IMG/VR virus record: IMGVR_UViG_2713896737_000030 | Source of the DNA: a virus | Lineage: Duplodnaviria > Heunggongvirae > Uroviricota > Caudoviricetes | Reading direction: 5' to 3' (one strand) | Length of the DNA: 9,825 nucleotides | In this document: positions 3,676 through 9,825 of the stretch, one piece after another | Layout of the letters: each line of letters begins with the position of its first letter | Numbering within the stretch: the first letter of the stretch is position 1 | Notes under the pieces: model-generated | What the model saw: only the letters and a program-made list of their open reading frames with translations | The model's database searches: none | Told to the model about the DNA's origin: nothing | Translations under genes and position numbers: made by a program

Positions 3676-3975
3676 ATGAAACTTAAATATTCTGGCTTAA
3701 CTGCCAGTGGCAACACTCACCCTAAATTTACGCGCGGTGATATTTACCGCGACCAGTACGGCGGCACGGTAATGATTAAGGGCGTGGAAGAACGGCGCGT
3801 AACCTACCGCCGTGAAGGTTACGAATATGATTGCGTGATGCCTGTTTATCAGTTCCGGCGTGATTTTTCTCTGGTACAGACCGCGCCGCATAACGTGCCC
3901 ACCAGCAACGCCAGGGCACGGGCAAACATCCAGAAGCTGAAAACCATGGTTAACGGATTCAGGGGCAAGAAATGA
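3676..3975 (+). CDS. Hypothetical protein (99 aa)
   Basis: GGAGAA SD upstream. Stop overlaps the ATG of the replication gene (ATGA at 3972-3975). Confidence 0.65.
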   Translation: MKLKYSGLTASGNTHPKFTRGDIYRDQYGGTVMIKGVEERRVTYRREGYEYDCVMPVYQFRRDFSLVQTAPHNVPTSNARARANIQKLKTMVNGFRGKK

Positions 3976-5372
3976 AAAGCGCACCGAACTTAAAAAAACA
4001 GCCTTACGACAAGATGACCGAAGTCATTATTTTTGCGGGTAGTGATGCCTGGGCACATGCGAAACAGTGGCAGGAACAGGACGGGCGACTGGCTGGCGAT
4101 AATGTGCCTCCCGTTGTGCTGGCTGATGATCAACTGGATGAACTGGCAGAACTGAGAATCATCGACGAGGGGCGCTATTGTGTCCGGCTGTACAAGGCAG
4201 GCCACATCAGGCCATCAAATATTAATGCCATTGCGCACAAGCTGGCGGCGGCGGGTGTAACTGATGCGAATTATTACCCCGAAGGGATGCACAGCCATAT
4301 GCGGGAGAACTGGCGCGAATACCTGGAACGGGTGCGCGGGAAAGAGCCGGCGGAAGAAAAAAACCACCAGCGAAAAACCACGCTACCGATGAGCGTTGGA
4401 TCTACCGGATACGACACGCAACTGGATTACGTGGTTAAGGGGATTATTCCGGCGGTATCGCTATGCAGCATATACGGGGCTAGCGGGTCCTATAAATCAT
4501 TCCTTGCCGGATCGTGGGCGTGCCATGTTGCCACTGGTCGCCAGTGGGGAGGCCGCAGGGTTGCACATGGTGCGGTTCTCTATGTGGTTGGTGAAGGCGG
4601 TATAGGTGTTCCGCGTCGTGTAAAAGCCTGGGAGGTTGTGCACGATGAGCAGGTGAAAAATCTGTATCTGGTAAACCGCCCCATCTTTCCGGCTGCCCCG
4701 CTTGATGTTGATGAAATGGTTATCGCTGCCCGTCAGGTGGAGCGGGAAACGGGTAAACCTGTACGCATGATTATTCTGGATACGCTGGCGCGTTGCTTTG
4801 GTGGGAATGATGAAAATGATTCCCGTGATATGGGGGCGTTTATCCGTGGTTGTGACGAACTGAAACGACGCACAGGGGCCACGGTGCTGGTGGTTCACCA
4901 TTCCGGCAAGGATGAGACGAAAGGCGCGCGCGGTTCCAGTGCATTTCGTGCTTCGCTGGATGCTGAATACCGGATACGCAGGGAGGACGCAGGAAGCGAA
5001 GCGCTGGTTATCTCATGCACCAAAATGAAGGACGCGGAGGAACTCAAAGAAGCCGCATATGACTTACGCGTGGTGGAGCTTTTTACCGACGCTGACGGTG
5101 AATTAATCACGTCGCTGGTGGTGGTGGATGATCCGCGCCCTCCTGTTGAACTGGAGCGCATCGAGGAGGCAGGGAACAAGACGGAAAACCATACCGCGCT
5201 ATGGGGGTGCATCCGTTCACGCACACAGAACGGCGACAAGTGCACGATCCCGCTGTTACGTGATGACATGAAAAAGCTGGGGTATGAAATGAAAAACTTC
5301 CGGCGCTGGCTGTACAAGCTGGAAAAAGATGGGGTTATTCGTATCGATGGGGATGATGTAGCGCCGCTATAA
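3972..5372 (+). CDS. Replication initiator ATPase/helicase, RepA-like RecA-fold (AAA_25-type) domain with N-terminal extension (466 aa); PICI pri/rep-like
   Basis: Walker A-like GASGSYKS, Walker B-like RMIILD, and downstream VVHHSGKD...RGSSA motifs typical of RepA/DnaB-like RecA-fold ATPases. Positioned after alpA and followed by an iteron array. Confidence 0.85.
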   Translation: MKSAPNLKKQPYDKMTEVIIFAGSDAWAHAKQWQEQDGRLAGDNVPPVVLADDQLDELAELRIIDEGRYCVRLYKAGHIRPSNINAIAHKLAAAGVTDANYYPEGMHSHMRENWREYLERVRGKEPAEEKNHQRKTTLPMSVGSTGYDTQLDYVVKGIIPAVSLCSIYGASGSYKSFLAGSWACHVATGRQWGGRRVAHGAVLYVVGEGGIGVPRRVKAWEVVHDEQVKNLYLVNRPIFPAAPLDVDEMVIAARQVERETGKPVRMIILDTLARCFGGNDENDSRDMGAFIRGCDELKRRTGATVLVVHHSGKDETKGARGSSAFRASLDAEYRIRREDAGSEALVISCTKMKDAEELKEAAYDLRVVELFTDADGELITSLVVVDDPRPPVELERIEEAGNKTENHTALWGCIRSRTQNGDKCTIPLLRDDMKKLGYEMKNFRRWLYKLEKDGVIRIDGDDVAPL

Positions 5373-5563
5373 AAGTGAGGAGCAAAAGCGAGGGGGATAG
5401 AAAGAGGGCCAAAATTAGCCCGCTCTCCCTCACTTTTCGACCTGTATACATCCTCAAAAGTGAGGGGTAAAAAAATACTTATGAAACACACACATAGAAA
5501 AACCGAAAATCCCAACTGCGACGAAGTGAGACGCTTGAAAAAGTGAGGCGAAAAAGTGAGAGG
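5372..5563. repeat. Iteron array (candidate replication origin): at least 6 copies of AAGTGAG, consensus (A)AAAGTGAGG, including one inverted copy
   Basis: Direct copies at 5373-5379, 5457-5463, 5524-5530, 5541-5547 and 5554-5560; inverted copy at 5428-5437 (CCTCACTTTT). Degenerate copies at 5385-5396 and 5401-5410. Lies immediately downstream of the rep gene. Confidence 0.65.
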
Positions 5564-6913: not shown

Positions 6914-6955
6914 AAAAAAAGCCCGATAAGGTCAGAGGGTTCTTATCGGGCTTTT
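6914..6955. terminator. Bidirectional terminator-like hairpin (10-bp stem GCCCGATAAG / CTTATCGGGC, A7 upstream, T4 downstream)
   Basis: Perfect 10-bp inverted repeat at 6921-6930 / 6942-6951 with an 11-nt loop. The A-run at 6914-6920 gives a 7-U tract when read on the minus strand. Confidence 0.6.
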
Positions 6956-7116: not shown

Positions 7117-7323
7117 ATGGCTGAAGAGAAAAAAAGCGGTGTTTCGGTGTACATAAGCCCCGAAATCGTGGAGGTGCTCAAGCAGCGCCACAAAAAAAAC
7201 TATGAAGCTGGCGTTGCGGCTGGACTGGATCCGCTGATGACGCCGGAGCCGTCGATAGGTTCACTTGTACGCTCTTATTTACTTGCGGCGCTTGGGATGC
7301 ATAAAAATTATGGGGGTGAATAA
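7117..7323 (+). CDS. Hypothetical small protein (68 aa; alternative start 7084), translationally coupled to the capsid gene
   Basis: AGAGGA about 10 nt upstream of ATG 7117. Stop TAA overlaps the capsid gene ATG (TAATG at 7321-7325). Confidence 0.5.
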   Translation: MAEEKKSGVSVYISPEIVEVLKQRHKKNYEAGVAAGLDPLMTPEPSIGSLVRSYLLAALGMHKNYGGE

Positions 7324-8378
7324 TGGCAGGCAAAGCAACGGCACTTAACACTAACCAGCTTTTCATGTACCTGAATCGCGGGGATATTGCGGATTTTAAA
7401 TTCAGCCCTCTGTTTACCACGCTGTTTTTCCCGAACGTGGCGACATTCAGCACGCAAAACATCATGCTGGATACCCTGGACATTGAAGAAGTCACCATGT
7501 CGGCGTTTTGTTCGCCTATGGTGGGTAGCCAGGTTCAGCGCGATAAAGGGTACGAAACCAGCACAATCAAACCTGGCTACATGAAGCCAAAGCACGAAAT
7601 CGATCCAACGAAAACCATCATGCGCATGGCTGGAGAAGATCCGGCACAGCTTAACGACCCTACCTATCGCCGTATGCGCCTGATTACTGGCAACATGCGC
7701 CGCCAGATAAACGCCATTAAGGCACGCGTGGAATGGCTGGCGGTGAATGCGGTAACGACCGGAAAAAACATCATTGAGGGCGAAGGCATAGAACGCTATG
7801 AAATCGACTGGAAAATACCGGAAAACTGCATCATAGAGCAGGCCAAGGGTAAAAAATGGTCCGAGCAGGATAAAGACATGCACGACCCAATCTATGACAT
7901 CGAGCTTTATGCTGATCAGGCTGGTTGCCCCGCAAACGTCATGATTATGGGCGCTGAGGTATGGCGCACATTACGCAGCTTTAAAAAATTCCGTGAGCTG
8001 TACGATCTTTCCCGTGGTTCAGAATCCGCCGCCGAACTGGCCTGTAAAAACCTGGGCGAAGTGGTGAGCTTTAAAGGCTATCTTGGTGATCTGGCCCTTA
8101 TCGTCTATTCCGGCAAATACACTGACAGCGATGGTACCGAAAAATATTTCCTTGAGCCTGATTTGCTGGTCCTAGGTAACACCAACAATAAAGGGCTGGT
8201 GGCCTATGGTGCGATAATGGATCAGGAAGCGGTAAGAACGGGCGCAACACAAAACATGTTTTACCCGAAAAACTGGATTGAGGACGGCGATCCGGCGATT
8301 GAGTACGTGCAGACACACAGTGCACCGCAGCCGGTACCGGCAGATATTCGCAAATTTGTTACCGTCAAAATTGGTTAA
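7323..8378 (+). CDS. Major capsid protein, phage lambda gpE-like family (351 aa)
   Basis: Several conserved blocks match lambda gpE as recalled: FKFSPLFTTLFF vs FKFDPLFLRLFF; PGYMKPKHEIDP vs PGYVKPKHEVNP; DPTYRRMRLI vs DPAYRRRRII; YPKNWIEDGDPAIEYVQTHSAP vs YPKNWVTTGDPAREFTMIQSAP. Length is similar (351 vs 341 aa). Strong SD (GGGGGTG). Confidence 0.85.
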   Translation: MAGKATALNTNQLFMYLNRGDIADFKFSPLFTTLFFPNVATFSTQNIMLDTLDIEEVTMSAFCSPMVGSQVQRDKGYETSTIKPGYMKPKHEIDPTKTIMRMAGEDPAQLNDPTYRRMRLITGNMRRQINAIKARVEWLAVNAVTTGKNIIEGEGIERYEIDWKIPENCIIEQAKGKKWSEQDKDMHDPIYDIELYADQAGCPANVMIMGAEVWRTLRSFKKFRELYDLSRGSESAAELACKNLGEVVSFKGYLGDLALIVYSGKYTDSDGTEKYFLEPDLLVLGNTNNKGLVAYGAIMDQEAVRTGATQNMFYPKNWIEDGDPAIEYVQTHSAPQPVPADIRKFVTVKIG

Positions 8379-8390
8379 CGGGGGGATTCT

Positions 8391-8726
8391 ATGGACACTC
8401 CATACATTGAGTTATTTGCAGGCAGTCAGCAGGTATCCACGACGTTGGTACATTTTGCCGCTGATGCTGGCGTTATTCAGGAATTTACCCCGCTGATGCT
8501 GGCAGACAATGGCGAGTTTAAGCCGTGGGATGGTCAGGAATCTGGCAAGGCTGTTTATCTGACCTCGTACCCTGTGGACACGTCAAAGCAGAAATCAGCA
8601 CAGTGTTACAAGACGGGGATATTCAATATTGCCGCCGTTAACTGGCCTGAGAGCGTCGACACCGATGCGAAAAAATGCGCCGCCTTTGCGGGTTCCGGCG
8701 TATCCGTTCAGCCGCTGGCCCGATAA
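8391..8726 (+). CDS. Head decoration protein, phage lambda gpD-like (111 aa)
   Basis: TPLMLADNGEFKPWDG vs lambda D TPLMLDTSSRKLVAWDG; CYKTGIFNIAAVNWPESVDTDAKKCAAFAGSGVSVQ vs [36 protein letters not shown]. Length 111 vs 110 aa. Confidence 0.8.
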   Translation: MDTPYIELFAGSQQVSTTLVHFAADAGVIQEFTPLMLADNGEFKPWDGQESGKAVYLTSYPVDTSKQKSAQCYKTGIFNIAAVNWPESVDTDAKKCAAFAGSGVSVQPLAR

Positions 8727-8738
8727 GCAGGGGGAACG

Positions 8739-9152
8739 ATGGCAACGAATGAAAGCATCATGACGCTACCGCTGGCGAGTAAATTTAAAGTCGAAGCGCG
8801 GGCAATGGCTGACAGAGGTTTATCAACCTATGAGGCCGTATATCAACTAAACAAACTGGAAGAGCAGGACAAGCCGTGCGCTGATGCGATTATGGCGCTT
8901 CATGAGCATAAAGACTATCAGCCGCTGTTGCGTGCAATGGCAAACGTGCCTTGTATCGATGTTGGTACGGCTAAAAGCATCCTTAGCATGACCATAGAGC
9001 AGGAACGTCCGAAGGTTGCGCCGGAACTTACCGCAGCCTTTGAAAACTTTATGGACATGCACAGCCCGCAAGCCGTATCAGCTGGCATGGCATACGATGG
9101 CAGAAACCAGGGCGATGACGGCGACATCGATCGCATACTGAAAACCATCTGA
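8739..9152 (+). CDS. Hypothetical protein (137 aa) between the decoration gene and the cos site
   Basis: ORF with a CAGGGGGA SD and a terminator just downstream. No recognisable motif; its position suggests a head or packaging accessory role. Confidence 0.7.
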   Translation: MATNESIMTLPLASKFKVEARAMADRGLSTYEAVYQLNKLEEQDKPCADAIMALHEHKDYQPLLRAMANVPCIDVGTAKSILSMTIEQERPKVAPELTAAFENFMDMHSPQAVSAGMAYDGRNQGDDGDIDRILKTI

Positions 9153-9157
9153 GACAA

Positions 9158-9180
9158 GGCCGGAGAAATCCGGCTTTTTT
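9158..9180 (+). terminator. Rho-independent terminator (copy 3 of the repeated hairpin)
   Basis: GCCGGA-GAAA-TCCGGC followed by 6 Ts, 6 nt after the stop of the 137-aa gene. Confidence 0.75.
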
Positions 9181-9204
9181 ACGGGTCCTTCCTGGAATTA
9201 TGGC

Positions 9205-9245
9205 CCGTTACGGGGCGGCGACCTCGCGGATTTTCGCTATTTATG
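9205..9245. other. Lambda-type cos site: the 12-nt sequence at 9213-9224 (GGGCGGCGACCT) matches the lambda cohesive end (cosN), with lambda-like flanks
   Basis: Window sequence GTTACGGGGCGGCGACCTCGCGGATTTTCGCTATTTATGAGCCTTTTCAGG compared with the lambda left end as recalled, GGGCGGCGACCTCGCGGGTTTTCGCTATTTATGAAAATTTTCCGG. The match is near-identical through CGCTATTTATGA and diverges thereafter, where lambda cosB lies. Sits about 135 bp upstream of a Nu1-like gene, as in lambda. Confidence 0.75.
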
Positions 9246-9318
9246 AGCCTTTTCAGGGTGGTGGTGGTGGTTTTGTTGTTTGATCTATCTTTATGAATGA
9301 AAAGGGAAAGATGCAAGC

Positions 9319-9356
9319 AATACACCAACCTGAAGCAGTAATTAAGTTGGTGTATT
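9319..9356. promoter_or_regulatory. 11-bp perfect inverted repeat AATACACCAAC / GTTGGTGTATT with a 16-nt loop, abutting the terS-like start codon
   Basis: Read directly (9319-9329 and 9346-9356). Candidate protein-binding site in the cosB-equivalent region, or an mRNA structure affecting translation initiation. Confidence 0.4.
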
Positions 9357-9357
9357 A

Positions 9358-9702
9358 ATGAAATCTCATCTGATGAACAAAAAAAACATGGCGAAAAGCT
9401 GCCGTGTAAGTGCGACAGCGTTCGACAAGTGGGGAGTAACTCCCGTTGAGCGTAAAGGCCGTGAGGCGTTTTATGATGTTGCCAGCGTGATAGAAAATAG
9501 GGTTAACAATGCAATTAGCCAGCTTATAAACGACAAAGGCGAGATTGACGATGATGAACTTTTACGAGTCAGGATCAGATTACTGACAGCACAGGCAGAG
9601 GCGCAGGAACTTAAAAACGATCGCGGTGACGTGATTGATACTGAGTTTTGCCTGTACGCGCTTTCAAAGCTGGCGAGTCAGATTTCATCAATCATGGACT
9701 GA
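9358..9702 (+). CDS. Terminase small subunit, lambda Nu1-like (PICI Rpp-like); 114 aa, apparently truncated at the 3' end by an IS insertion
   Basis: LTAQAEAQELKNDRGDVIDTEFCLYALSKLASQISSIMD matches lambda Nu1 [42 protein letters not shown]. N-terminal region resembles the Nu1 winged-HTH region. Nu1 is 181 aa; here the reading frame ends with a TGA that is the first three bases of the IS (9700-9702). The exact start is uncertain (ATGs at 9358, 9373, 9388; none has a good SD). Confidence 0.75.
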   Translation: MKSHLMNKKNMAKSCRVSATAFDKWGVTPVERKGREAFYDVASVIENRVNNAISQLINDKGEIDDDELLRVRIRLLTAQAEAQELKNDRGDVIDTEFCLYALSKLASQISSIMD

Positions 9703-9825
9703 ACCGCCCCGGAAATCCTGGAGACTAAACTCCCTGAGAAAGAGGTAAACAGGATGACTAAAAATACTCGTTTTTCCCCCGAAGTCCGTCAGCGGGCGAT
9801 TCGTATGGTTCTGGAAAGTCAGGAT
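9700..9825 (+). mobile_element. IS3-family insertion sequence (IS629/IS1203-like left end), partial; continues beyond the window
   Basis: Left terminus TGAACCGCCCCGGAAATCCTGGAGACTAAACTCCCTGAGAAAGAGGTAAACAGG followed by the OrfA start. The terminal sequence and OrfA N-terminus match IS3-group elements as recalled. Confidence 0.75.
9754..9825 (+). CDS. IS3-family transposase OrfA (HTH subunit), N-terminal 24 codons; partial, runs off the window
   Basis: MTKNTRFSPEVRQRAIRMVLESQD matches the conserved N-terminus of IS629-like OrfA (MTKNTRFSPEVRQRAVRMVLESQ...). SD GAGAAAGAGG upstream. Confidence 0.8.
   Translation, partial: MTKNTRFSPEVRQRAIRMVLESQD

Follow-up and report, generated by a model that had tools for sequence, protein, structure and literature searches.

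What lies between the cohesive-end site and the small terminase gene of this island, and which protein would read it? The window, by which we mean the whole stretch of 9,825 nucleotides analysed here, has in this interval a GGT-rich tract and an 11-bp inverted repeat, and the initial annotation proposed both as recognition elements for the TerS protein. We favour, with moderate confidence and on comparative sequence evidence, the reading that 9256-9356 is the tripartite cosB of an island of the EcCICFT073 family, read by the island's own TerS of N15-gp1/Nu1 type instead of by Rpp. The cos site and its flanks are laid out as follows.

9158-9180, plus strand: terminator-like GC-rich hairpin with T6 (GGCCGGAGAAATCCGGCTTTTTT), after a 137-aa open reading frame, read directly from the sequence.
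9183-9189, plus strand: cosQ, GGGTCCT, with heptamer and spacing as at EcCICFT073 cos1.
9213-9224, plus strand: cosN cohesive end GGGCGGCGACCT, which defines bp 1-12 and matches bp 1-12 of lambda and EcCICFT073 cos1 in every base.
9225-9253, plus strand: cosN-proximal spacer, bp 13-41, common to lambda (MAFFT alignment) and EcCICFT073.

The interval had been described as the cosB side of a lambda-type cos adjoining a Nu1-family gene, and this description was borne out. The 12-nt cohesive end is that of lambda, cosQ is present about 30 bp to its left, and bp 13-34 are nearly identical to lambda. The heptamer GGGTCCT, which we take to be the lambda cosQ, is nearly invariant among the aligned islands and is also found in EcCICFT073. 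A highly conserved 7-bp cosQ site has been described (PMC4669245). The hairpin at 9158-9180, kept in E. coli-type islands and in EcCICFT073 and absent from the output of a simple terminator scan, would close the capsid-gene operon in the manner of a terminator, immediately left of cos. The tract and the inverted repeat lie 45-144 bp to the right of cosN 9213-9224; counted from the cohesive end, the tract occupies bp 45-59, the left arm of the repeat bp 107-117 and the right arm bp 134-144.

The window is a sibling of EcCICFT073, found at the same chromosomal locus with a backbone that is 94% identical. Together with L001, the related locus that holds an intact terS allele, it encodes an integrase, an HTH regulator, a RepA/AAA_25 helicase, SSB, PerC, E-like and D-like capsid genes, and terS. 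Measured against the definition of a PICI (integrase, AlpA-type regulator, primase/replicase, unidirectional genes, 10-20 kb, capsid genes without a complete virion module), its gene content, backbone and locus are those of a Gram-negative PICI of the EcCICFT073 family. Homology to EcCICFT073 breaks at 9253, which corresponds to L001:11554 (BLAST, L001 against CFT073) and lies 3 bp before the tract, and it resumes about 147 nt past terS. In between, CFT073 carries a different cosB and rppA, where the window carries its cosB and a Nu1-type terS. The cosB segment of EcCICFT073 has been shown experimentally to carry Rpp-dependent specificity (PMC6739421). Judged from these junctions, cosB and terS are inherited as one cassette, exchangeable within one island backbone. 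A phage with the same cosB was sought and rejected, as blastn gave no match at the DNA level in a collection of 50,697 phage records.

The gene that follows the interval, and the element inserted in it, are these.

9358-9702, plus strand: terS of Nu1/N15-gp1 type, truncated after codon 114 (PF07471, PHROG 57).
9700-9825, plus strand: left end of an IS3-family element (TGAACCGCCCCGG...), with a transposase open reading frame that starts at 9755.

The 114-codon frame had been called terS-like. It is indeed a Nu1-family gene, but a truncated one, whose stop codon TGA at 9700-9702 is part of the inserted element (junction between 9699 and 9700); this element is 94% identical to an IS of strain C325 labelled 'IS3 family transposase', which sits at a different position in terS there. 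The intact allele (178 aa, L001:11659-12195) matches PF07471 with 74.8 bits (cut-off 30; 7.8e-21), against 41.8 bits for the window fragment, and PHROG 57 at 3.5e-49; WP_001452974 is one example of an intact allele. The intact protein has 36% identity with lambda Nu1 across residues 6-164, C-terminal end included, and aligns to Nu1 residues 121-180, the putative TerL-binding end. Its nearest phage relative is N15 gp1 (44%), with which it has in common AFDKWGV-PVE, the putative recognition helix and the start of the wing, and its N-terminus aligns to the DNA-binding domains of both phage proteins. A TerS profile matched 1J9I and 6HN7_B, the profile itself having included lambda. An AlphaFold2 model gave the element order H-H-strand-strand-H with a pLDDT of 56, so that the winged-helix fold is a putative one, assigned from homology and secondary-structure order; for the same reason the model was rejected as a query for fold searches. 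Neither phmmer nor a profile search related the island TerS by sequence to RppC in the PDB, and RppA matches TerS profiles over its first ~47 residues only. The window TerS, ending at residue 114, lacks the C-terminal ~40 residues of the large-terminase-binding type. Since the insertion removes residues 115-178, which align with the TerL-binding end of lambda Nu1, the packaging system is probably disabled in this particular window.

The start of the gene is at ATG 9358, as supported by the pattern M-x-x-[HY]-L-[ML]-NKK, kept in homologues down to 57% identity. A start at 9373 (Met6) was rejected because homologues bearing Leu at this position keep the upstream ATG with a strong Shine-Dalgarno sequence before it. 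The earlier statement that this ATG has no Shine-Dalgarno sequence was too strong, as GGTG occurs within the right arm, 5 nt ahead of the ATG, where the corresponding stretch in relatives is GGGGA or AGAGGTG.

Between cosN and this start codon we distinguish the following elements.

9256-9282, plus strand: G/T triplet block, proposed R3, positioned as are R3 of lambda and R3 of N15.
9286-9298, plus strand: TATC-N-ATGAAT block, bp 74-86, at the I1 position of lambda and conserved across three subfamilies.
9293-9358, plus strand: upstream reading frame of 21 codons (MNEKGKMQAIHQPEAVIKLVY and a stop), whose TAA overlaps the terS ATG.
9318-9334, minus strand: proposed R2, consisting of the left arm and its flank; the minus strand reads TTCAGGTTGGTGTATTG.
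9344-9356, plus strand: proposed R1-like copy, the right arm (AAGTTGGTGTATT), clade-specific and overlapping the terS ribosome-binding region.

Both repeats are real. The tract at 9256-9282 reads GGGTGGTGGTGGTGGTTTTGTTGTTTG, and its (GGT)5 at 9257-9271 is the sole trinucleotide array that Tandem Repeats Finder detects in the window; when the 9.8-kb window was randomised under a first-order Markov model, (GGT)5 or another non-homopolymer trinucleotide in five copies appeared in 0 of 400 sequences. The arms AATACACCAAC (9319-9329) and GTTGGTGTATT (9346-9356) are 100% complementary and 16 nt apart, and between the right arm and the ATG there is a single base, A9357. Perfect 11-bp inverted repeats with a loop of 3-30 nt occurred in 6% of 400 such randomised windows, which, scaled by length, gives a chance of ~1e-3 within the 133 bp from cosN to ATG; the real window has four repeats of this kind.

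Conservation was followed in 47 distinct cos-to-terS variants from 108 loci, with TerS identity down to 57%. They fall into three subfamilies (34 E. coli-type variants; Enterobacter-type variants, 12 of them scored for G-quadruplex motifs; and L064), and the hosts of the diverged variants are Kosakonia, Superficieibacter, Enterobacter and Citrobacter. Three blocks are fixed across the 47 variants in sequence and in distance from cosN. The first, at bp 50-68, where lambda and N15 have R3, reads TGGTGGTGGT[G/T]TTGTTGTT; the second, at bp 74-86, TATC..ATGAWT; and the third, at bp 106-117, corresponding to the left arm and to the R2 position of lambda, inverted, CAATACACC[A/C]AC. To the right of bp 35, conservation is strongest at bp 50-68 and bp 106-117. 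The family-conserved core of the G/T block in the window is TGGTGGTGGTTTTGTTGTT at 9262-9280 (bp 50-68), the two 5' units of the block being variable. In the left arm, ACACC[A/C]AC is kept at a fixed distance from cosN in 45 of the 47 variants, and the proposed R2 core of the window, CAATACACCAAC, is found at 9318-9329 (bp 106-117), where the lambda R2 core is at bp 109-120. The right arm is unconserved: it is perfect in this clade alone, and other clades have GTGGGGATATT, GTTGTGGTATC or AGAGGTGAAA in its position, a Shine-Dalgarno sequence. Conservation in related islands thus holds for the core of the tract and for the left arm, and fails for the right arm and for the inverted repeat as a unit, which is perfect in one E. 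coli clade and shows zero compensatory changes. The proposal of TerS recognition elements stands in the same measure, for a tract and a left arm conserved at the R3 and R2 positions but not for the perfect repeat itself.

The conserved blocks resemble a site of known function. R3 lies at bp 50-65 in lambda and at bp 48-59 in N15 (PMC9026076; PMC4669245), and in N15 it was defined by block mutations in the adjoining hexamers GAGGTT and GTTGTT (PMC4669245). Scanning for matches of at least 9/12 to AGGTTGTTGTTT returned 15 in the whole window, four of them within 9262-9355 in the orientation +,+,-,+, where the background rate of the scan predicts about 0.1; the proposed sites are all G/T-rich and of low complexity, so that motif similarity is weak evidence here. 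The same scan recovers the published rR2 of N15. N15 R3, GAGGTTGTTGTT, matches the island blocks as + / - / +: the G/T block has two matches of at least 9/12, at 9262 and 9270, the proposed R2 matches 10/12 on the minus strand, and the right arm 9/12. Within the island, the proposed R2 is 11/12 complementary to 9252-9263, and the right arm agrees with the minus-strand R2 motif at 11/12. Aligned with R2 in reverse complement, R3 scored better than shuffles in L068 and L134 (0/300 each) and in the window (p about 0.01); the value was 0.06 in L064, where R3 has changed toward its own R2, and in Enterobacter-type islands the test did not reach significance (p 0.14-0.9). R3 is ambiguous in register: the N15-critical bp 54-59 read GGTGGT in the island, and GTTGTT is found 6-9 bp further out. 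Tract and left arm resemble a mutationally defined R3 whose TerS has the same putative helix, and they are inherited together with terS, in agreement with the earlier proposal.

The inverted repeat might instead act as RNA, with a hairpin occluding the ribosome-binding site and start of terS and with terS translation coupled to the upstream frame, whose translation would open the hairpin. We consider this unlikely, and where it holds it would be compatible with a DNA site, in this clade only. The 21-codon frame reported at 9293-9358 does exist and ends in TAATG; each of the 34 E. coli-type variants keeps it open and has its end at the terS ATG, the overlap taking three forms (TAATG, TGATG or ATGA), and islands that lack it (L064 and the Enterobacter-type) carry the canonical Shine-Dalgarno sequence AGAGGTG. 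Against coupling, no Shine-Dalgarno sequence precedes the frame and its peptide is variable. The window RNA 9300-9385 folds into an 11-bp stem at -18.2 kcal/mol (z = -2.9), equalled by 1 of 200 shuffles, but the folds of relatives do not surpass shuffles (z -1.1 and -0.6), and among 17 distinct variants 7 of the 11 pairs vary by mismatch only with zero compensatory changes. A conserved RNA hairpin was rejected on this lack of covariation, and Rfam returned nothing for 9000-9825 at E <= 1. Furthermore, the left arm is conserved even in islands without the right arm, so pairing cannot explain its conservation.

Conserved blocks could also be bound by something other than TerS, such as a host architectural protein, an AlpA/PerC-type island regulator at a terS promoter, or the helper terminase, and this we regard as improbable. 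The block TATC..ATGAWT, which in the window includes the start of the upstream frame, is conserved at the I1 position and otherwise unaccounted for, and some Enterobacter-type islands match the IHF consensus 8/9 there. When WATCARNNNNTTR was searched for in bp 62-106 of the 47 variants, the best match in the window and in all E. coli-type islands was 6/9, which does not surpass shuffles (p about 1 for the window), where lambda reached 8/9 in the same test; an IHF site at this position is unsupported in E. coli-type islands, though not disproved. Given the terminator-like hairpin at 9158-9180, terS may require a promoter of its own, but the search for a sigma-70-like promoter found none on the plus strand in 8700-9825. 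The blocks also co-segregate with terS and not with the backbone common to EcCICFT073, and the motif matches R3 of a phage with the same putative recognition helix in its TerS, both of which speak for TerS as the binding protein.

A very improbable explanation is that the perfect inverted repeat is a recent and functionally neutral accident, produced when one clade acquired three substitutions in its Shine-Dalgarno region. The ancestral-looking GTGGGGATATT already pairs with the left arm at 8/11, so that three changes bring it to 11/11, and perfect pairing is confined to this clade. All three changes, however, go toward the R2 motif and yield the 11/12 direct copy; the L065 clade independently has 9/12 to N15 R3 at the right-arm place (scored by hand); and the clade is widespread, O157:H7 genomes included. 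Finally, that the tract is a slippage-prone microsatellite or a G-quadruplex element modulating cos by its length or by non-B DNA is highly improbable since, although one GGT unit is missing in 2 of the 47 variants (L066 and L100, 142 bp from cos to ATG) and a two-tetrad motif occurs in 33 of 34 E. coli-type variants, the 5' units differ by substitution with their number constant, the distance from cos to ATG stays at 145 bp for 32 of the 34 E. coli-type variants, the two-tetrad motif is kept in just 2 of 12 Enterobacter-type variants and absent from L064, a single three-tetrad motif exists among all variants, and the conserved part takes in GTT repeats incapable of forming G-tetrads. The label of length-variable microsatellite was abandoned for this near-invariance, and that of a G-quadruplex because the potential to form one is not kept beyond E. 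coli-type islands; the 6-nt length difference of O157:H7 is an 'ER' insertion within terS, outside the tract.

Under the tripartite cosB reading, the winged-helix domain of the island TerS would bind the G/T block at bp 50-68 as R3, setting the distance to cosN, and would also bind the inverted copy of the motif at bp 106-122, the left arm, as R2. In this clade a third, direct copy at bp 132-144, the right arm, would serve as R1, having overwritten an ancestral Shine-Dalgarno region. The C-terminal domain of TerS may then recruit a lambda-like helper TerL, leading to the nick at cosN and to packaging of island concatemers. Helper TerS is not expected to recognise the island cosB, which would make packaging island-specific. 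Two TerS-encoding E. coli islands were reported not to be mobilised by resident prophages (ISME J 2018, PMC6092414).

This arrangement can be compared with known systems. In lambda-like phages the order is R3-I1-R2-R1, with R2 inverted (PMC9026076; PMC4669245). The island shares with lambda an identical cosN, cosQ at the same spacing, a conserved candidate block where lambda has R3, a second one, inverted, where it has R2, in this clade a third copy, in direct orientation, ahead of the TerS gene, and a TerS of the Nu1 family with an alignable C-terminal end. It differs in its R sequences, which are unrelated (G/T triplets against CGTTTCC(T/G)TTCT in lambda), in having no IHF consensus at the I1 position, in a shorter cosB (ATG at bp 146, against 191 in lambda) and in a DNA-binding domain of N15 type with a short wing. 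N15 is closer, its gp1 being the closest phage TerS with the AFDKWGV helix in common, and its R3 having the same G-N-T triplet periodicity and register and matching the proposed island R2 and R1 at 10/12 and 9/12. Unlike N15, the island has SATAFDKWGV or GVTAFDKWGV in place of SVQAFDKWGV, GGTGGT and not GTTGTT at bp 54-59, by motif scan no rR2-like copy at the equivalent place inside terS, and, being a satellite, no large terminase. The cosB of N15 has a single R3 at bp 48-59 and a remote rR2, whereas 'Monarch' N15-like prophages have a tripartite cosB (PMC4669245); compared by description only, these resemble the island in joining an N15-type helix to a complex cosB. SaPIs, among them SaPI1 and SaPIbov1, likewise supply a TerS and its cognate site and borrow the TerL and capsids of the helper (PMC6092414, PMC6739421), but they use headful (pac) packaging with an unrelated TerS family in Gram-positive hosts, where we find cos and a Nu1-type TerS.

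A further comparison is with EcCICFT073, whose cos1 and R3-PICI are read by an Rpp-TerS heterodimer (PMC6739421, PMC9026076). The two islands have the same backbone and integration locus, 94% identity up to bp 41 of cos, a recognition gene directly after cosB and a second, inverted copy of cos downstream. The island TerS is full-length (178 aa, with a putative TerL-binding end), whereas Rpp proteins have 135-153 aa and need the helper TerS; terS starts at bp 146 in the window and rppA at bp 102 in CFT073; and the island cosB is 44 bp longer, with extra R2-like and R1-like blocks. Four studied islands are described as having one and the same R3-PICI at bp 55-63 (PMC9026076). Its proposed sequence in CFT073, ACCACCACC, is the reverse complement of the GGT tract of the window, so that the triplet tract stands on the opposite strand; bp 55-63 of the window are GTGGTTTTG, and the complement of the CFT073 tract lies a few bp to the left. 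In gene type, gene start and R3-PICI sequence, the window departs from Rpp-type PICI packaging.

A further idea, which we put forward tentatively and think unlikely, is that terS and rpp cassettes would both use one triplet core, TGGTGGTGGTGT, as their anchoring R3, read in opposite orientations. In terS cassettes the core, on the top strand, would be bound by an N15-type TerS homodimer, and in rpp cassettes, on the bottom strand, by the Rpp-TerS heterodimer. Orientation and the extra inverted R2, and not the core, would then decide which complex places helper TerL on cosN, and the inverted cos1 and cos2 around the cassette could be a route for exchanging packaging specificity.

Gram-negative cos-type satellites have so far been understood through one mechanism, the hijacking of helper TerS by Rpp. 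A cosB of the sort proposed here is an expected kind of element, but it appears to be undescribed for this island type, as our literature search found no description of the cos sites of TerS-encoding islands. The blocks provide a base-pair map of the probable specificity determinant for this TerS class, with R3 placed at bp 50-68, R2 in inverted form at bp 106-117 and R1 specific to the clade, tied to the genetically characterised specificity of N15, and the map could guide PICI-based delivery vehicles with orthogonal packaging signals. As the island is common, with most of the query 8700-9825 held by 491 of 5,426 complete E. coli genomes, O157:H7 strains included, the map bears on the spread of these islands and of their PerC-type regulators.

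The window is a phage-satellite island, with the following features (bp numbers are counted from the cohesive-end sequence, window 9213 being bp 1):

1-1230, tyrosine integrase
3972-5372, RepA/AAA_25 helicase
7323-8378, lambda-E-type major capsid protein
8391-8726, lambda-D-type decoration protein
8739-9152, 137-aa protein, with an intergenic region on its right and then the Phage_Nu1-family ORF
9183-9189, cosQ, GGGTCCT
9213-9224, cohesive-end sequence GGGCGGCGACCT
bp 13-34, spacer nearly identical to that of lambda
9358-9702, Phage_Nu1-family ORF (terS)
also encoded in the window, SSB and a PerC-family regulator

An uninterrupted copy of the island, with a Nu1-like gene of 178 codons, lies between roxA and phoQ in E. 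coli 08-3914 (L001); over 8700-9699 its identity to the window is 100%. Of 5,426 complete E. coli genomes, 491, many O157:H7 strains among them, contain most of the 8700-9825 segment. EcCICFT073 of strain CFT073 (L073), the model Gram-negative PICI, occupies the same locus. Its genes for the capsid, decoration and 137-aa proteins are 94% identical in DNA to those here, but it carries rppA in place of this island's terS. The 137-aa protein, encoded left of cos, matches PHROG 1999 (1.7e-68) and has no Pfam match; a head-maturation protease family is matched less strongly, in its C-terminal part (4.7e-9). These matches hint that a scaffold-like (Nu3-type) protein is encoded beside the E-like and D-like capsid genes. 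In the Enterobacter/Citrobacter relatives L058-L063, the region ~2 kb right of terS contains a lambda-like major capsid gene, truncated at its 5' end, and after it FI, FII, Z and U, and these islands are therefore embedded in the capsid gene of a helper prophage, similarly to the published helper-embedded PICI 11capE but, unlike it, with a terS.

Judged by its sequence, the region preceding terS is a lambda-type cos site. Two terS-bearing metagenome contigs (L071:1-163 and L072:1-150) both start within ~15 nt of cosN, and these starts could be either the linear ends of packaged DNA or points where the assembly broke in the repeated cos sequence. The initial annotation had described a GGT tract and an inverted repeat between cos and terS, and both are as reported: (GGT)5 lies at 9257-9271, inside a G/T run (9256-9282), and the left arm AATACACCAAC (9319-9329) and right arm GTTGGTGTATT (9346-9356) are perfectly complementary over 11 bp, 16 nt apart, with a single base between the end of the right arm and the ATG at 9358. 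(GGT)5 occurred in none of 400 randomised windows and a perfect 11-bp inverted repeat in 6% of whole 9.8-kb randomisations, and a chance origin of either in so short an interval is unlikely. Three more perfect inverted repeats of 11-14 bp, with loops of 11-22 nt, are present at 2456-2500, 5427-5466 and 6917-6955, a number greater than in random sequence; the one directly after the RepA-type helicase gene is a possible origin or terminator.

The cos-to-terS interval was gathered from 108 related loci (complete genomes, species-representative genomes, contigs encoding homologues, and IMG/VR), giving 47 distinct sequences in three groups: the E. coli type (n=34), the divergent metagenome contig L064 (n=1) and the Enterobacter/Citrobacter/Kosakonia/Superficieibacter type (n=12). 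The distance from cohesive end to ATG is 148-151 bp in the last of these groups. Among the 34 E. coli-type variants it is 145 bp in 32, and the other two have lost one GGT unit; such constancy does not support the reading of the tract as a microsatellite, and a non-B-DNA reading of the G-rich tract is likewise unsupported. Three blocks are kept in all three groups: TGGTGGTGGT[G/T]TTGTTGTT at bp 50-68, made of the last three units of the GGT tract and GTT repeats, the two leftmost GGT units being variable by substitution; TATC-N-ATGAWT at bp 74-86; and CAATACACC[A/C]AC at bp 106-117, which is the left arm. The right arm is not conserved, as GTTGGTGTATT is confined to the window's clade, O157:H7 included, other E. 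coli-type clades having GTGGGGATATT, GTTGGGATATT, GTGGGGGTATT or GTTGTGGTATC, and other genera having AGAGGTGAAA-type Shine-Dalgarno sequences instead. Furthermore, the 17 distinct E. coli-type sequences contain no compensatory change in any pair of the 11-bp stem, 7 of the 11 pairs varying by mismatches only, and while the window RNA folds at -18.2 kcal/mol (z = -2.9), relatives reach z values of only -1.1 and -0.6. Because compensatory changes are lacking and relatives fold poorly, the inverted repeat is no conserved hairpin; by this comparison it is the left arm that is conserved, in both sequence and position.

In lambda-like phages, cosB is arranged as R3-I1-R2-R1, with R2 inverted, R3 at bp 50-65 and a critical cosN-R3 distance; N15 has a single R3 (bp 48-59), known from two 6-bp block mutations, GAGGTT and GTTGTT, together with a remote inverted rR2, and in the 'Monarch' prophage group a tripartite cosB occurs together with the N15 recognition helix (Feiss laboratory; PMC9026076, PMC4669245). 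When both strands of the whole window were scanned with the N15 R3 12-mer AGGTTGTTGTTT at a threshold of at least 9/12, we obtained 15 matches, four of them within 9262-9355. The G/T block holds two plus-strand matches that overlap, the left arm is the minus-strand match AGGTTGGTGTAT (10/12), and the right arm is the plus-strand match AAGTTGGTGTAT (9/12); the same scan recovered the published N15 rR2. This order and orientation (+, -, +) is that of R3, R2 and R1, and the left-arm block at bp 106-117 compares with the lambda R2 core at bp 109-120. In E. coli-type islands, R3 aligns with the reverse complement of R2 better than shuffled controls do, and L064, whose R3 is changed (TGGTGGGCGTG) towards its own R2 (TGGTGGGTGTA), comes close to this; in Enterobacter-type islands the alignment is no better than in shuffled controls. 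The G/T tract and the left arm are probably TerS recognition elements of N15-like specificity in a lambda or Monarch arrangement, and the proposal that the repeats are recognised by TerS is thus partly supported, though not for the inverted repeat as such. The low complexity of all candidate motifs weakens this reading, and the register of R3 is ambiguous, with the island GGTGGT at the N15-critical bp 54-59 and GTTGTT 6-9 bp further right. TATC-N-ATGAAT (9286-9298) is at the position of lambda IHF site I1 and is off the IHF consensus in E. coli-type islands; in these islands no IHF consensus is found between R3 and R2, a further point that weakens the reading.

Comparison of homologues indicates that the ATG at 9358 is the real terS start: the N-terminus M-x-x-[HY]-L-[ML]-NKK is kept in homologues of 57% identity, and some of these, in which codon 6 is Leu, carry a strong Shine-Dalgarno sequence, AGAGGTG, ahead of the equivalent ATG. 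The description of this start as devoid of a Shine-Dalgarno sequence was overstated, since GGTG remains 5 nt from the ATG, the right arm occupying the Shine-Dalgarno place, and pairing with the 16S 3' end is predicted to be about as good as in relatives and better than for lambda Nu1. In 34 of 34 E. coli-type variants the upstream frame of 21 codons is uninterrupted and finishes on the terS ATG (as TAATG, TGATG or ATGA); it is absent from islands with a strong Shine-Dalgarno sequence. Its openness is not statistically compelling because independent substitutions are few, and its variable peptide, the lack of its own Shine-Dalgarno sequence and a start coinciding with the conserved ATGAWT block count against a role; translational coupling to terS is possible but unproven.

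Intact TerS belongs to the Nu1 family (PF07471, 7.8e-21; PHROG 57, 3.5e-49) and is 36% identical to lambda Nu1 over residues 6-164, the C-terminal end included. Its closest phage protein is N15 gp1 (44%), with which it has AFDKWGV-PVE in common in the DNA-binding domain, where lambda has TIQNWQEQGMPV. The AlphaFold2 model is of low confidence (pLDDT 56), another weak point for recognition by TerS; the order of its secondary-structure elements (helix 8-14, helix 19-25, two strands, helix 41-54) agrees with a winged helix-turn-helix. Building on the observed anatomy, conservation and homologies, we propose that TerS dimers would bind R3 and the inverted R2, plus an additional R1 in the window's clade, and that this binding would hold the complex correctly spaced from cosN; through its C-terminal end TerS would recruit the helper's large terminase, which would nick cosN and package island DNA. 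The helper TerS, with a different recognition helix, should ignore the island cosB.

In the window, terS is truncated after codon 114 by an IS3-family element that begins at 9700 (TGAACCGCCCCGG...; junction 9699/9700) and whose first triplet, TGA, is the stop codon; in the intact gene another 64 codons (SLPLTMQRSFPQ...) lie past the junction. What is missing here aligns with the lambda Nu1 C-terminal region, to which TerL binding has been assigned (PMC9026076). The cosB of the window would be an orphan site, unless the TerS fragment has gained an Rpp-like role. Strain C325 (L002) carries a 94%-identical IS at a different terS position, ~codon 150 (L002:7108), and terS has therefore taken at least two independent insertions. 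A point against the proposed mechanism is that resident prophages did not mobilise either of two E. coli islands with their own TerS in a 2018 test (PMC6092414).

Homology between the island and EcCICFT073 stops at window 9253, 3 bases before the tract, and resumes ~147 nt past the terS stop, so that the exchanged unit is exactly cosB and its reader gene. The equivalent segment of EcCICFT073 confers RppA-dependent packaging, as shown experimentally (PMC6739421), and the co-inheritance of cosB and terS is as would be expected if the adjacent TerS reads 9254-9357. In each of the two islands the cassette lies between inverted cosQ-cosN copies: cos1 is to its left, and cos2, which is without the G/T block, is ~150 nt past the gene (L001:12343-12416, outside the window and beyond the IS; L073:3276-3340). 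The cosB of the terS-type island had no DNA-level match among sequenced phages in a 50,697-record collection. In EcCICFT073 cos1 (L073:2559-2660), the proposed R3-PICI (bp 48-65) is AGGTGACACCACCACCAC, and its part at bp 55-63, in which the four Rpp islands studied are said not to differ (PMC9026076), is ACCACCACC, the reverse complement of the GGT tract; (ACC)4 occupies bp 54-65 of this proposed Rpp-binding site, at nearly the same distance from cosN as the GGT tract. Compared by eye, the CFT073 bottom strand has 12 nt (TGGTGGTGGTGT) in common with the terS islands of Enterobacter type. This reverse-complement relation was the least expected result of the analysis, and the likeness of the triplet tracts in Rpp and terS islands may come either from a common ancestry of the sites or from their being read in the same way. 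What adds some interest to the site is that terS and rpp cassettes are exchanged and that their triplet tracts run in opposite orientations.
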